From a virus (Duplodnaviria > Heunggongvirae > Uroviricota > Caudoviricetes): DNA of 42,791 nt. Both the position numbers and the translations under genes were made by a program. The stretch is from positions 1 through 42,791 of IMG/VR virus record IMGVR_UViG_2537562189_000008. One strand, written 5' to 3'. Below the pieces are notes generated by a model. That model had not been told where the DNA came from. It did no database searches and worked only from the letters and a program-made list of their open reading frames with translations. Position 1 is the first letter of the stretch, and each line of letters opens with the position of its first letter. This document shows, in pieces, positions 1,855 through 31,112 of this stretch.

Positions 1855-3924
1855 TTATTGATAGAAAACAGTTTTCAGTCCTGTGTTAGTCCCAACAGAG
1901 GTAATCCCTCTGTAAAGGCCGACATTACTGTTGGTTGTGCTATCAACCCTAACGATTCCATCAATGTTATTTATAAGTGAATTTGTGGTTTGTACAGCGT
2001 TGACAGCATAAGATTTACTTTGTGCTGATATATTTGATGCAACTAAAGTACCAGTTGTCATTGATACACCAACGCTTGACGAACCACTCTCAAAAACTGA
2101 ATTTTTAACAATAGCTTTTGCAACCCCACCAGAAATGTTTATATCTGCTCCGTTAAATGCCTGACTGATTCTCTTGACGTCTGACACGCTGATCAGAGAT
2201 ATACTTCCACCTGATAATATATCAAAGAAGAATGAAGACCTTGTGGGATTTGAACTTGATACTGAAATATCACTTAAGTAAACATTACCAATATTAAATC
2301 CGTATCTGATTTCTAACAAAATCGCCCCGTCATAACCTTGCCCATATATGCCATTAATATTTACATACGGTGTTGTGTTATTAACTGCCCGAATTGCGAC
2401 TATGTATCTTGATCCTTCAGAGTGAATGTTATTCGCGTTTACCTGCCCGGAAGTTATCTGTAGACCTGCGCTTAGCTCATAGGTTGCTGTCGTCTTAAGA
2501 TAAACATCACTGATAGTATTGAACCCATCAGATGAATCAACACCATTGCCAATCCTTCCTCGCCCACTAACACCACGAACAACACAGGAACTACCATAAA
2601 CACTAACACAACTATACATAGGGTTAGTTGCTGAGGCGTCATCACAAACCGCAAATACATTTGTTACTGTAACATCATTGGCCTGAACTTTGACTGCTCG
2701 CTTAAGTGCATTGTAAGTATAAACGCCATCAACCTTTATTTTCTTCCCGCTGAGCATATTTGATGATGAGTTGTAAATCTGAATAACAACACCATCAGCA
2801 TCTTCCCAAGGGTTTAGCTTGTAAATCCTTACGTTACTTATAACTCCACTTGATACCTCATCATCATTTGATGGTACTGGATCAAGTGCCGTTCCTACAA
2901 GAATCCCTCGACATGGCCCAATTACATCACCCTGAATACCATTTCCAATGGTGGTAATATTATGTATTGATATGTTATCAACGACAAAATTCAATACAGA
3001 ATTTGCATCTATGAAAATACCATAAGTTAGTTGAGAACCATTACTATCAAAAACATCAACATTCTTAACTACTGGATTAACAGCCCCTGTTTTGATATGA
3101 ACAGGCCTTCTAATTGCCATCATATTGCAGTTAACTTTAATATTGTTAAGCATGCATGAGTTTACTGTTATAAATGATCCTTCATCTCCGATAGCAACAA
3201 TTTCACCATTAATCAAATCTTTCGTAATATTGATGGTGCTGGCTTTAACTGTAGTTCCGTTAAGGTCCACATTCAATCCGTGCGCCATAATAGATTCAAT
3301 TGAATATTTCGCATCAGCACTCGTATCGATATACTGAGATGGCCAAACCAGTGTGTTATGAGGTGAAGAGTATTTATAAGATAGGCCATTCCTTGTTAAA
3401 TATAACTGTGATGCTGATACCGAAAACCCATCGGCAAGACCTGTAATTCCCGGAGCATATTCGTAAATCTCACCTGAGGATGTGGTGATTTTAAAACCAA
3501 CATTTGGATCTGAATCCATGGCACCATGTAATGCCCCATTTACTAAATTAACCCCACCAACACCATCTAACTCCTGTCTTAGTTGGTCAGGGTCATACTT
3601 CAGCACATTAGGAAAATAGAACTGCTGCGCACCATACGCATCATATACAGCCATAGAATGGCCTTGCACAGTTACGAACTTGGCAATCTGCCCGTTATAT
3701 ACCGGGTAACCAGCAGCGTTAATGATGATTGGTTGCGAAACAGGAATGTGAGAACCGTCTTCGTTTTCCACATAAACCTGAATCTGGTTTTCAGGATTTA
3801 CCGGATCAGTGTCAATTTTACCGATATAAATTTTGCCATTGGCAACCGCTTTAAAAGAACGCGCCATAGTGAAGAGTTGAGAAGGCATGCTCACTACAAC
3901 ATTGGCATTTATTGAATCTGTCAT
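1855..3924 (-). CDS. Tailspike protein with P22-type N-terminal head-binding domain and a divergent beta-helix receptor-binding domain
   Basis: 689-aa ORF; N-terminus [12 protein letters not shown]...[38 protein letters not shown] matches P22 gp9 head-binding domain from memory; remainder is Ser/Thr/Asn/Gly/Val-rich as in beta-helix tailspikes; AT-rich C-terminal portion. Confidence 0.9.
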
Positions 3925-26534: not shown

Positions 26535-26703
26535 CGTCTTCTTCCTCGTACATTGAGCTATTCGGATCGCTCATAAGCTCTGCGCAGCAATCGGAGCACA
26601 CGTGAACTTCCAGAACATGCAGCTTCTGACCGCAGTTAGCGCACGTTAAAGCTCGCTCGACGCTTTCTTTCTGGTATTGAAGGGATTGGGATGGGCTAAG
26701 CAT
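26527..26703 (-). CDS. ninF: NinF-like protein
   Basis: 58-aa product from internal [57 protein letters not shown] matches lambda NinF from memory; ORF track frame extends to 26760. Confidence 0.75.
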   Translation of the reverse strand: MLSPSQSLQYQKESVERALTCANCGQKLHVLEVHVCSDCCAELMSDPNSSMYEEEDDE

Positions 26704-27103
26704 GGCTTTCACCATTAAAAAGTCGCTTGTAAGCATCAATGTCTCGTTTTGCTTCACCAAGCTTTCGTCTTAATTCCATGTTTTCTGATTCAAGCTTTTC
26801 CATGTCTTGTTGGTATCGATCGCGGTGTTCTTTCCATGCTTTTTGATACGCCTTCATGTATGTCATGTTGGCCTTTCTCTTTGCCTGACGAACTGCGTGG
26901 TGGTTTTTCACAAACCAGTCAGGGTCGTTAAATGCTGCTCTGGCGCATGTATACCAATAATTTGTTGCCTCCCTGTTTAGCCAATAAATACTGATAAATG
27001 GCAACCGGATAGACACCATTTTTCGTTGTGACTCTTTCTCGCCAAACATGTGGCCTTTTTTGATGCTAAGTCCAAATCCAGGTTGAATTAAAAGCATTGT
27101 CAT
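26696..27103 (-). CDS. Hypothetical nin-region protein (NinX-position), start coupled to ninE stop
   Basis: ORF 26696..27139; ATG at 27103 overlaps ninE stop (ATGA); basic/coiled-coil C-terminus. Confidence 0.5.
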
Positions 27104-27276: not shown

Positions 27277-28118
27277 GCCGCATCCTCAAAATTAAATCCA
27301 AGCTGACATGAAAATGCTTCACATGATTCAGAACACGAACCTGAATCATACTGTCGCATTGATGTCATTCTTGAGGCTAACTCATCTCTTGATATATCAC
27401 TAAACAAGGCAATCAGTGATTTAAGTGTATTATTCCCTCGATACATAACCGGTTCCTTTCCTGTTTTTATTTCTGTATCAAGGATGTTGATAAATGCATC
27501 TGCAAGTTCTGGCTCATCCATGGCTGCCAGCGCAACCTTTTGCATACTTTTTTTTATACAGAAAACACAATTACCAAGATGCTCCTGTATGCCAAGATCA
27601 AACTTCTGCCCACTCCACCAATCAAGCACATCCTGTTTTTCAAAATCGCTTATATCAGCCAGGTACCGAAAACCATTAGCCCTTTTAAGCCTGTTTGGTT
27701 CATCTGTGCGAATGCCAAGCCATGTGATGTAATTTCCTTTCCCAAACTTTTCCTGACAATATTTGGTGAATGGAACAGACTTCATTCTGTCGGTACAGAA
27801 CGCACCGCCGATATATGGATGTCCGTATTTATTCAACATCCTTTTCCACGGTATAAGATCTGGACCAATATCAGTGACACCTATCTCTTCATAACTACTG
27901 GCCTTCCCCATTTCTGGATTAGGTATTACACGAAGGCAATGTAAGTCTATTTTCCAGTTACTGACGATATTTCGGATGAACTCATATGTTTTAGGGTGCT
28001 CTGCCCCTGTATCCATGAAAACGTAATGCACGTCTTCACCAGCCTGTCGCTTTTGCTCCATTAGCCAGAGCAAATATGCTGACGTCCTGCCACCGGAGAA
28101 ACTAACGACATTTATCAT
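27273..28118 (-). CDS. NinC-like PAPS-reductase-family (PP-loop ATP pyrophosphatase fold) protein
   Basis: PP-loop motif [14 protein letters not shown] near the N-terminus when started at the ATG overlapping ninB stop; ORF track frame extends to 28178. Confidence 0.7.
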
Positions 28119-28555
28119 GCAGCCTTGTCTCCCCATCTTGCTTTCCACTCCAGAGCCAGTCGCGCTTCGTCTGACCACTTAACGCCACGCTCTGTACCGA
28201 ATGCCTGTATAAGCTCTAATAGCTCCGCAAATTCGCTTACACGCATCCTGCTGGTTGACTGGCCTATTACCACAAAGCCATTCCCGGCAAGGTTAGGAAC
28301 AACATCCTGCTGCTTTAATGCTGCGGTAAACACACACTTCCAGCTTTCTGCATCCAGCCAGCGACCATGCCATTCAACCTGACGAGAGACGTCACCAAGG
28401 CAAGCCCAAAGCTTCCTGTTTTGGTCTAAGCTGCGGTTGCGTTCCTGAATGGTTACTACGATTGGTTTGGTTGGGTCTGGAAGGATTTGCTGTACCGCGT
28501 GAATAGCGTTTTGCTGATGTGCTGGAGATCGAATTTCAAAGGTTAGTTTTTTCAT
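28115..28555 (-). CDS. ninB: NinB (Orf-family recombination mediator)
   Basis: 146-aa product MKKLTFEIRSPAHQQNAIHAVQQILPDPTKPIVVTIQERNRSLDQNRKLWACLGDV... matches lambda NinB from memory. Confidence 0.88.
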   Translation of the reverse strand: MKKLTFEIRSPAHQQNAIHAVQQILPDPTKPIVVTIQERNRSLDQNRKLWACLGDVSRQVEWHGRWLDAESWKCVFTAALKQQDVVPNLAGNGFVVIGQSTSRMRVSEFAELLELIQAFGTERGVKWSDEARLALEWKARWGDKAA

Positions 28556-28571
28556 GACTTCCCTCTCCCCC

Positions 28572-28603
28572 AAATAAAAAGGCCTGCGATTACCAGCAGG
28601 CCT
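28572..28603 (-). terminator. tR2-like rho-independent terminator between helicase gene and ninB
   Basis: Minus-strand hairpin AGGCCTGC-TGGTAATC-GCAGGCCT followed by TTTTTATTTG. Confidence 0.65.
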
Positions 28604-28631
28604 GTTATTAGCTCAGTGATGTAGATGGTCA

Positions 28632-31112
28632 TCAGAATCCTCCTTTCTTCTTGGACTGCGGTTCCTCGCGTTCACGTCGGCGCATTTCAGCAGACTGTTG
28701 GTCTGTGTCATAAATAGCGCCATTTGCCTGAATGCAATACACCGTGCCGGTATTGCCATGACGATTGAGACGAAGGATTAGTTCGGTTTCACCAGGTGGA
28801 ACACTGTCATCAAAAGCGCCTTCACGATGGATCCCAACCCAATAATCGCAATCCTGTTCAATCTGCCCTGTATCTCGTGAGTCACTTGGTAATGGGCGTT
28901 TATTGGTTCGGCTTTCCAGTGCGCGGTTAAGCTGTGTCAGAAGCACAACAACGCAATCAAGCTCTTTGGCAAGGTTCTTCAGTCCTTTGGTGATCATGCC
29001 GTAAGCAAGGTCGTTGCGATCGGCCTTCTCAGCGGTCATTAGTGTCAGGTAATCGACCAGAATCATGCCAACACATCCTTTTTCTCGCTTGATTCGACGG
29101 CTTTCGCTGACGATTTGAGCCAGAGATAATCCCGGCGTGTCGTCGATGTAAAGCATGTCGATTTCACTCAAGCGATTAGCTGTTTCGATCGCCCTGTTGA
29201 AGTCACCATCGTAATCACCCTGATAGCCGTCATCAGCGTCATTTGTCGCCGGAAGGTAAAAAATATTCGGGTTAACACCAGACTTCTGCCCTACCAGTTT
29301 TTCCAGTATCTGGTCACCTGGCATTTCAAGGCTGAACATCAGAGCGGGCTTTTTCTCATGCACTGCGCAGTTGATTGCCATCTGGCTGTATAGCGTGGTG
29401 TTGTGGGTTAGAATGTATCCGTCAGTTGCATACAAATGTCTCTCGTGGGATACCATGATGCAAATGCACTCTTCACGTCCAATATACTCAACCGACGTGA
29501 TAACAGGCGCACTTGTTTTGATGCGTTTTGCAGTGAATTTTTGCTTCAGGCGTGGAGATTTTATGTGTGATAGAACCTCATCAGGCAACCTGATTGCGCA
29601 AATATGGGCATCCATACCTTTGCGCATTTCTCCCTTATAACTGAATTTCGGCTCCTGTTTGGTTGTCATACGACACACGCCACCAAGAGAATGCACCAGC
29701 CGCTTTACACCATCTGACAGGAACTTGCTTGCCGAGCTAAAGCGCAGGGCATTATTTCCTTCAACCCAACCATCGGTTTCAAGTAATCCGCATAGAACAT
29801 CAATACGAGTTTGCTTATCAGCAGAAAAAATAATATCCGGGATAATTTTAATCTCTGACATCCGGCCGTAGATACCAAGCCGTTGCATAACCCGCGTAAG
29901 AGATAATTTGCGGCTAAACTTGTGAGATAGGGAGTAATCGCAGCCAGAAACATGCCTGACTTCAATATCGTCACCCACTTCAGATCTTACTCGCTCAATG
30001 ATGTATGGTTCCGTCATGCTGATTCGTGGCGTACCTGCAAGATTTCCATCGCCAAGTAACGCACCTAACAGCCATGGGCTAATCCCTAAATCAACAGGCA
30101 ATCCGAAGTCACCGCTAATACCAGGAACATGAATGCGGCTTTGATAGCGAACGCATTCCATCATGTCCCGTAGGCGGCAGGTGTCTACAACATCAACGCC
30201 ACCGGTAATACGGTTACTATGAATTTCCCACAAATGATCATCCGCGCAATCAACGGTTCTTCCGTCAGAGAACGTAACTCGGTAAATATCTCGCTCCCCT
30301 TGAGGAAAAACTCCAGACACGAATGATGGTTGTCCATCCACTGATGCTAGGGAATCTCCAACACATACGTCACGAAATGTTGTCCATGAACCATCAGCAA
30401 GCAAAATGCGTGAATTAAGCGGTTGCGCTTTCCCCATCTTAGGGCGAGCGCCAATGACAAACAGAGAGCCTTTCACCAGACCTTTCGGTGACAGCATCCT
30501 GTCCAGCGATGGGATCCCTGTGCTCATTCCTCGTTGTTCGCCTGACGGGTCAAATCGCTTCTCAAGGTCGCTAACCCAGTCTTCCATGACCTCACCAAAT
30601 GAGCGAAGGCCGCGACGCGATCCGGTTTTTGCATGGTCTGTCAGTTGCGTGAAAATCGACTGAATAGCTTCGTACTTCTGCGTTGCAGTCATTCCGTTGC
30701 GGGAATAGAGCAATTCCGTCGCTTCAGTCATGCGGTTGATGGCGTAGCGTTCCATTGCGGTTTCGCGAACCTGCATTGCATAAGCAACGATGTTTGCTGC
30801 GCTTGGCGTGTTCTTTGCGATCTCAGCGATATAAGCAAAACCGCCAACAGACACCGTTAACGATTTGCGCTCCAGTTCATCGAAAAGCGTCAGGCCATCT
30901 ACTGGCTTTTGCTCCCGGTGCATTCTGGTTATTTCTTCGAAAAGGATTTTGTGTGGTCGGCTGTAAAATGAATCAGGCTTCAGCATCGCCAGAACTTTCT
31001 GGACGCGCTCACTGCTGTCATCATCCAGAAGCAATCCACCAATCACCGCCTGCTCTGCCTCGATGCTATGGGGCGGCGCATAAAAATTATCGGTCATCGT
31101 GTTCACCCTCAC
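28632..31112 (-). CDS. Replicative DNA helicase (DnaB family, P22 gene 12-like) interrupted by an intein
   Basis: 826-aa ORF; DnaB N-terminal domain (YAPPHSIEAEQAVIGGLLLDDD); Walker A GARPKMGK split from its Thr and the downstream DnaB motifs (TLYSQMAINCA...MFSLEM) by a 343-aa insertion bearing Hint and LAGLIDADG motifs. Confidence 0.88.
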   Translation of the reverse strand: MRVNTMTDNFYAPPHSIEAEQAVIGGLLLDDDSSERVQKVLAMLKPDSFYSRPHKILFEEITRMHREQKPVDGLTLFDELERKSLTVSVGGFAYIAEIAKNTPSAANIVAYAMQVRETAMERYAINRMTEATELLYSRNGMTATQKYEAIQSIFTQLTDHAKTGSRRGLRSFGEVMEDWVSDLEKRFDPSGEQRGMSTGIPSLDRMLSPKGLVKGSLFVIGARPKMGKAQPLNSRILLADGSWTTFRDVCVGDSLASVDGQPSFVSGVFPQGERDIYRVTFSDGRTVDCADDHLWEIHSNRITGGVDVVDTCRLRDMMECVRYQSRIHVPGISGDFGLPVDLGISPWLLGALLGDGNLAGTPRISMTEPYIIERVRSEVGDDIEVRHVSGCDYSLSHKFSRKLSLTRVMQRLGIYGRMSEIKIIPDIIFSADKQTRIDVLCGLLETDGWVEGNNALRFSSASKFLSDGVKRLVHSLGGVCRMTTKQEPKFSYKGEMRKGMDAHICAIRLPDEVLSHIKSPRLKQKFTAKRIKTSAPVITSVEYIGREECICIMVSHERHLYATDGYILTHNTTLYSQMAINCAVHEKKPALMFSLEMPGDQILEKLVGQKSGVNPNIFYLPATNDADDGYQGDYDGDFNRAIETANRLSEIDMLYIDDTPGLSLAQIVSESRRIKREKGCVGMILVDYLTLMTAEKADRNDLAYGMITKGLKNLAKELDCVVVLLTQLNRALESRTNKRPLPSDSRDTGQIEQDCDYWVGIHREGAFDDSVPPGETELILRLNRHGNTGTVYCIQANGAIYDTDQQSAEMRRREREEPQSKKKGGF
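29400..30428 (-). other. Intein (Hint splicing domain plus LAGLIDADG homing endonuclease) inserted in the helicase P-loop; Ala at position 1 with Trp, Cys and Thr at the positions expected for a class-3-type intein
   Basis: Residues A229..N571 of the helicase ORF: block A-like ILLADGSW...CVGDSLASVDG, block B-like GRTVDCADDHLW, LAGLIDADG motifs LLGALLGDGNL and LCGLLETDGWVEG, C-terminal ...CICIMV...YILTHN followed by Thr as +1 extein residue restoring GK-T. Confidence 0.75.

Follow-up and report, generated by a model that had tools for sequence, protein, structure and literature searches.

The intrinsic terminator tR2 lies within ninA, a 26-codon lambdoid phage gene that is probably translated

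We analysed a 42,791-nucleotide stretch of DNA from a virus of the Caudoviricetes (IMG/VR record IMGVR_UViG_2537562189_000008, positions 1 to 42,791; hereafter the window). On its minus strand, between a gene for a DnaB-type helicase and ninB, lies an 81-nt reading frame whose start and stop codons overlap both neighbours. This frame, ninA (28552..28632), is assigned by PHROG 5907 and by its UniRef name; it runs from an ATG at 28632-28630 to a TGA at 28554-28552, and its 26 codons encode MTIYITELITGLLVIAGLFIWGRGKS. The frame and its translation were exactly as originally predicted, although the interval first given for it, 28572-28631, lies within the ORF and covers only 60 of the 81 nt of the full span. 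The upstream gene (28635..31112, minus strand) encodes a replicative helicase of 826 aa, recognised from its ORF and its Pfam matches to DnaB (2.1e-30), DnaB_C (2.2e-53) and LAGLIDADG_3 (residues 439-485). Because the DnaB_C match is split into two stretches and is accompanied by LAGLIDADG_3, the helicase contains an intein with a homing-endonuclease domain. Its 3' end reads ...AAG AAA GGA GGA TTC TGA, and these last codons contain the Shine-Dalgarno sequence of ninA, AAGGAGG (28639..28645, minus strand), a perfect match placed 6 nt 5' of the ATG that the original prediction had not mentioned.

The two junctions of ninA differ in form. The helicase stop codon TGA (28632..28634, minus strand) shares its A with the ninA ATG (TGATG). 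The ATG thus overlaps the helicase stop as had been proposed, but it does so by one base, and the ATGA reported at this position exists only with respect to a further in-frame TGA in tandem with the first. The real ATGA overlap sits at the opposite end of the gene, where the ATG of ninB (28555-28553) overlaps the TGA of ninA (28554-28552). The downstream gene ninB (28115..28555, minus strand) encodes 146 aa and matches Pfam NinB at 1.1e-54; a putative Shine-Dalgarno region for it, GGAGAGGG (28561..28568, minus strand), was read from the sequence and also encodes NinA residues 22-24. Elsewhere in this gene cluster, a 133-aa ORF between NinE and NinF (26699-27097, minus strand) is without a Pfam match.

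Codons 10-18 of ninA form the tR2 hairpin, AGGCCTGC-TGGTAATC-GCAGGCCT (28580..28603, minus strand), which has 8 bp (6 of them G-C), a loop of 8 and a folding energy of -15.7 kcal/mol (z = -3.4). The T-tract that follows, TTTTATTT (28572..28579, minus strand), occupies codons 18-21 (L-F-I-W). Hairpin and T-tract are those of lambda tR2 (NC_001416) without a sequence difference, which bears out the description of the element as tR2-like. The further claim that the coding sequence is itself the hairpin is true of codons 10-18; codons 18-21 belong to the T-tract, and the terminator includes neither codons 1-9 nor codons 22-26. Codons 1-10 (28603..28632, minus strand) place 30 nt between the upstream stop codon and tR2, and it is here that variation is codon-periodic (see below). 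Folding of 111 nt revealed no competing antiterminator helix involving the tR2 stem, with the terminator hairpin dominating (overall z = -1.75), and an Rfam search of 28300-28900 gave no match.

A single transmembrane-like helix is predicted in NinA at residues ~3-21, in agreement with the original prediction. The best 19-residue hydropathy in the ninA frame is 2.04 for genes with the tR2 hairpin and 1.52 for those with a second hairpin type found in relatives of HK97 gp56 (described below). With both hairpin types, the ninA frame is the sole open frame and also the most hydrophobic, and the other two frames contain stops. At residues 11-21, the GC stem and the T-tract in part dictate a hydrophobic sequence.

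Judged by its sequence, this tiny hydrophobic frame is the long-named lambdoid gene ninA of the early-right operon and is not new. We sought named relatives by exact protein-cluster look-up and by tblastn. The exact 26-aa peptide is deposited as 'NinA protein' (NCBI, UniRef K7PHM1), and PHROG 5907 was matched at E = 1.6e-19, with NinA residues 1-26 on profile positions 1-26 of 27; Pfam and NCBIfam searches with NinA matched no model. Curated records of P22, Sf6, L and phage 21 annotate a terminator within the ninA CDS. Among these, the Sf6 record places gene 45, 'tR2' and 'bsq6; boundary sequence' on the ninA segment, and the phage 21 record names its CDS 'similar to lambda Orf26'; the SPN9CC record annotates the ninA CDS without a terminator feature. 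The nin genes of lambda and P22 listed in published papers include ninA, and in the RefSeq lambda record (NC_001416, 40567-40647) the gene is not annotated. Little of this is new: curated phage records already contain and name the gene and show that tR2 overlaps it, and experiments on its start site have been published.

The gene is widespread in Escherichia coli. Of 5426 complete genomes of this species, 2055 (~38%) contain its DNA, at 3010 places in all, and ninA was an annotated feature in 0 of the 30 RefSeq E. coli rows sampled. Relatives of the HK97 gp56 type (the MTIYITELITGAIYTVALFYWIKNEGDPDGHR cluster) are labelled 'histone H1' in many NCBI records of E. coli, Salmonella and Shigella, an evident propagated misannotation. 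With ninA unannotated in the RefSeq rows shown and its relatives mislabelled, the gene is under-counted in small-protein catalogues. The NinA peptide was not found in the supplements of a paper on small genes detected by Ribo-seq in O157:H7 Sakai, and a full-text literature search for the peptide string returned nothing. In the DLP12 prophage of E. coli K-12, emrE follows renD, with no ninA or tR2 there. One contig labelled 'Pseudomonas sp. 30_B' (NZ_JAFGYY010000031.1, locus L168) carries a lambda-type ren-ninA-ninB junction with lambda's codon-5 ATT, and may represent contamination of the assembly by lambda DNA.

The HK97 gp56-type NinA (32 aa, MTIYITELITGAIYTVALFYWIKNEGDPDGHR) also belongs to PHROG 5907 and has the same first 10 codons as the ninA studied here. 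Its codons 10-18 likewise hold an intrinsic terminator, which begins at the same nucleotide and is read in the same frame, again with 21 codons to a conserved Trp. Its hairpin differs, having a 10-bp stem, a 5-nt loop and a folding energy of -12.6 to -14.6 kcal/mol, and its tail is longer and acidic, with a stop codon 11 nt inside the next gene. The pairing registers of the two hairpins are offset by one, and we therefore rejected the idea that compensatory change within a single helix gave rise to both. True compensatory change occurred only within the HK97 type, in which a pair passed from T-A through T-G to C-G by synonymous third-position changes.

We gathered related IMG/VR loci with three anchors, namely the tR2 hairpin, the back-translated N-terminus and the second hairpin type; the first of these introduces no bias into the 5' part of the ORF, and the second none into the hairpin and tail. 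The ATG was in register in 224/234 hairpin-anchored loci. The loci out of register represented one haplotype with a 1-nt deletion (5 loci) and one homing-endonuclease insertion (5 loci), and a nonsense allele (E7 to stop) with the hairpin kept was present at a single locus among the 224. It had been proposed that a frame not conserved in related phages, beside a conserved hairpin, would argue against a gene; a broken frame with the hairpin kept proved to be rare.

The junctions are likewise conserved in position, though not in the genes that they join. In 211/211 loci, the stop codon of a long upstream ORF falls at -3 to +1 relative to the ninA ATG, and upstream homology ends exactly at that ATG. 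We distinguished 14 upstream junction strings, which represent at least 7 unrelated 3' ends, among them ren and two helicase types. A Shine-Dalgarno-like motif lies 6-10 nt 5' of the ATG in 13 of these strings; the remaining string was seen at one locus. The helicase-ninA junction of the window also occurs in 50 related loci. On the downstream side, the start of the following gene falls between -17 and +13 nt relative to the ninA stop in ~94% of 218 loci, and the stop and next start overlap exactly as ATGA or GTGA in 74/218. At least 8 different junctions fall within or just past the ninA tail, where homology ends just after the T-tract.

Differences among these loci follow the codons of ninA outside the hairpin. 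In codons 2-10 of the tR2-anchored set, the 12 variant alleles comprised 8 synonymous and 4 conservative changes, 0 of them at second positions (synonymous excess p = 0.0016, or 0.001 with a transition/transversion-matched null). The excess was weaker when the second hairpin set was added (9 synonymous vs 10 non-synonymous, p = 0.036). Nucleotide diversity at the three codon positions of the combined sets was 0.060/0.003/0.054, i.e., ~20-fold lower at second positions of codons 2-10 than at first and third positions (second-position depletion p = 0.024). Nearly all replacements in these codons were I/V/L/M or T/A swaps, and swaps that keep U at position 2 would be the signature expected of a hydrophobic helix. 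Codons 11-22 showed no clear protein-level constraint: L13Q was present in 8 loci, W21 was changed to L, C or a stop, and changes in the tR2 stem mostly kept pairing via G-U. The tail beyond W21 is hypervariable. Because DNA identity is so high, all of these conservation statistics rest on few independent events.

A chance control was provided by unrelated terminators. Scanning genomes for the hairpin pattern returned 3/120 relevant matches; the rest were almost all unrelated terminators of other phyla and were reused in a control set drawn from representative bacterial genomes, 133 unrelated terminators that share the stems and the T-run. The frame equivalent to ninA was open through the hairpin in 124/133 of these, and the openness of a frame through such a hairpin is trivial. 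An ATG-started ORF crossed the hairpin in the equivalent frame in 20/133 (15%), and an ATG together with a Shine-Dalgarno-like motif was present in 1/133 (0.75%). Because only 1 of the 133 controls had both, an ATG with a perfect Shine-Dalgarno sequence joined to both neighbours is no routine by-product of a terminator.

Published work bears directly on the start site. Li et al. (2016) used a reporter in which tR2 was preceded by natural lambda sequence, and described the NinA initiation site as 'not weak' (PMC4824070). Mutation of the NinA RBS or AUG restored a two-fold loss of the upstream reporter (RFP) and raised termination efficiency by ~10%; the authors ascribed the loss of RFP to trans-translation, set off when ribosomes read terminated transcripts that lack a stop codon (PMC4824070). 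In lambda, tR2 lies 30 bp after the NinA AUG and 16 bp before the NinA stop; the same study found that the in vivo efficiency of tR2 is maximal, ~0.9, only when a stop codon is at least about 30 bp away, and that ribosomes do not repress terminators located in the initial 100 bp of an ORF (PMC4824070). For NinA these authors cite Kroger and Hobom (1982) and a lambda ribosome-profiling study (PMC4824070). The whole nin region can be deleted with plaque formation kept (PMC10695390), and NinA is non-essential.

Several variant loci depart from this arrangement. An HNH/AP2-type endonuclease gene is inserted in ninA right after codon 10 in 5 loci (L010, L066, L077, L087 and L116). In L010 (6334-7079) the inserted gene encodes 203 aa and is AT-rich, and the same gene is present in the E. 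coli O157:H7 matches H68, H69 and H125; judged by eye and from the 'HNH endonuclease' labels of the records, it resembles a homing endonuclease. What remains of ninA after the insertion is a 34-aa ninA' (MTIYITELIAGLSLLMVLTVYIIKYILYANKKTN) that overlaps the HNH start, and the HNH stop codon comes to lie immediately next to the tR2 hairpin. We considered this hairpin-less L010 variant as a transmembrane peptide independent of the terminator and rejected it, because its new tail comes from the AT-rich HNH insertion. In L281 and four other loci, there is a 1-nt deletion in ninA codon 2, and a tandem TAA TAA stands 3 nt before an HK97-type hairpin; by the stop-distance rule of Li et al., a stop 3 nt away should weaken the terminator of this haplotype. 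Finally, ninA in L132 (~993-1320) has no stop past a third hairpin variant and forms an in-frame 109-aa fusion ORF with the downstream gene.

Together, these data suggest that ninA is probably a genuine translated 26-codon gene, within whose coding sequence the intrinsic terminator tR2 is also encoded, and they favour a real micro-protein, one of two options that the original prediction had left open, over a by-product of the terminator. The evidence for this reading is the anatomy of the locus, the conservation of the frame over many contexts and two hairpins, the codon-periodic substitutions and the active use of the lambda start in a reporter. Ribosomes leaving the helicase gene, or binding AAGGAGG, would start at the stop-overlapping ninA ATG. 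The first ten codons would hold the helicase stop ~30 nt from the hairpin, allowing tR2 to fold and to terminate unmodified transcription. On transcripts ending at tR2, ribosomes translating ninA would reach the 3' end without a stop codon and presumably be rescued by tmRNA, lowering the yield of the upstream message; we infer this rescue for the phage context. On antiterminated read-through transcripts, the ribosome would instead melt the hairpin and complete NinA, and the ninA TGA overlapping the ninB ATG would hand translation to the interlinked nin genes, so that coupling is inferred on both flanks. The product would be a single-helix hydrophobic peptide under mild purifying selection, likely inserted in the inner membrane. 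It is roughly an even bet that this peptide has a function of its own, beyond the act of its translation.

The main rival, which we regard as possible but on balance doubtful, is that translation alone matters and the peptide is disposable, i.e., that reading ninA serves as a bridge that spaces the helicase stop from tR2, destabilises terminated transcripts and couples ninB. Start and stop coupling kept beside many unrelated neighbours fits such a bridge, as do the changes in upstream expression and in termination efficiency that were measured when the start site was mutated (PMC4824070), the hypervariable tail, L13Q and variable W21, the persistence of frameshift and nonsense alleles, and the dispensability of the nin region (PMC10695390). 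A bridge would need an open frame alone, yet the second positions of codons 2-10 are ~20-fold less diverse, nearly all replacements stay within I/V/L/M or T/A so that the hydrophobic helix is retained, and each of two different hairpins, read in the ninA frame, gives residues compatible with a helix. The codon periodicity of the existing differences also weighs against the view that the 80-bp block is kept mainly as a recombination boundary sequence, with the terminator as its sole function and the ORF incidental. A boundary role would account for the near-identity of the block, for the breaks in homology at the ATG and just past the T-tract beside many different flanks, and for the Sf6 label 'bsq6; boundary sequence' on exactly the ninA segment, all in line with the module-exchange linker model (PMC3233612); it does not explain that periodicity, nor the Shine-Dalgarno motifs kept in non-homologous upstream genes, and we consider it unlikely as the whole explanation. 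The status of the block as a boundary sequence is nevertheless real, and it is compatible with a coding role rather than exclusive of one.

Far less credible than either is that ninA is an untranslated accident, in which a GC stem and a T-run happen to read as hydrophobic codons. A 26-codon open frame is by itself not improbable, as the 124/133 open control terminators illustrate, and the gene is annotated neither in RefSeq lambda nor in the sampled RefSeq E. coli rows. An accident is nonetheless hard to reconcile with a perfect Shine-Dalgarno sequence at optimal spacing, with similar motifs supplied by nearly all unrelated upstream genes, with the rarity of an ATG plus Shine-Dalgarno motif among control terminators (0.75%), with a start site active in a reporter (PMC4824070) and with codon-periodic variation outside the hairpin.

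If ninA is indeed a translated gene containing tR2, it might also be a built-in regulatory device, an extension that we think improbable. Every tR2-terminated transcript would become a non-stop message because the ninA start precedes tR2 and its stop follows, and tmRNA with RNase R would then actively remove mRNA of the replication genes that is made without antitermination. On read-through transcripts the peptide would be completed and the coupled chain of nin genes turned on, giving a translation-based timer for the passage from early to delayed-early expression. In such a device, the conserved hydrophobic NinA might additionally act at the membrane.

The closest known counterparts of this gene are the NinA of lambda, 21, P22, Sf6, L and epsilon34 (PHROG 5907), which occupy the same place between a replication gene and ninB and have tR2 within the CDS. 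Compared with lambda ninA, the gene in the window differs at one nucleotide, codon 5 being ATC here and ATT in lambda, a synonymous change. Its surroundings differ more: the upstream neighbour is an intein-containing DnaB-type helicase here and ren in lambda, the start overlap is TGATG rather than ATGA, and the Shine-Dalgarno sequence is stronger (AAGGAGG vs GGAG). The ninA block also resembles other lambdoid boundary sequences, in that a conserved segment (labelled bsq6 in Sf6) is found in at least 7 upstream and at least 8 downstream contexts; the boundary-sequence model is summarised in PMC3233612.

Small size and a single hydrophobic helix are features that NinA shares with type I toxins (Hok, Ldr, TisB and Ibs), from which it differs in being embedded in an operon chain. 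We know of no toxicity of NinA. A scan of 27800-29400 for promoter-like sites on either strand gave zero, and so none for an antisense RNA. We rejected the toxin reading on the combined lack of a Pfam or NCBIfam match, a promoter-like site and an Rfam match.

Like the leader-peptide attenuators of pyrBI and trp, ninA is a short translated ORF linked to an intrinsic terminator, a likeness already drawn by Li et al. (PMC4824070). In such a layout, termination could respond to the position of the ribosome because the ORF is physically linked to the terminator. Unlike those leaders, ninA is without regulatory codon runs, and its ORF extends through and beyond the terminator. We rejected attenuation of this kind, as no antiterminator fold was seen and the effect of the NinA start on termination in the reporter is ~10% (PMC4824070). 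Compared with lambda tR2 considered simply as a terminator, the element in the window has the same sequence and lies in a translated frame rather than between genes. ninA would be a clean natural case of a terminator that is also coding sequence, kept in frame across two hairpins, in a gene carried by ~38% of complete E. coli genomes and absent from the features of the RefSeq rows shown.
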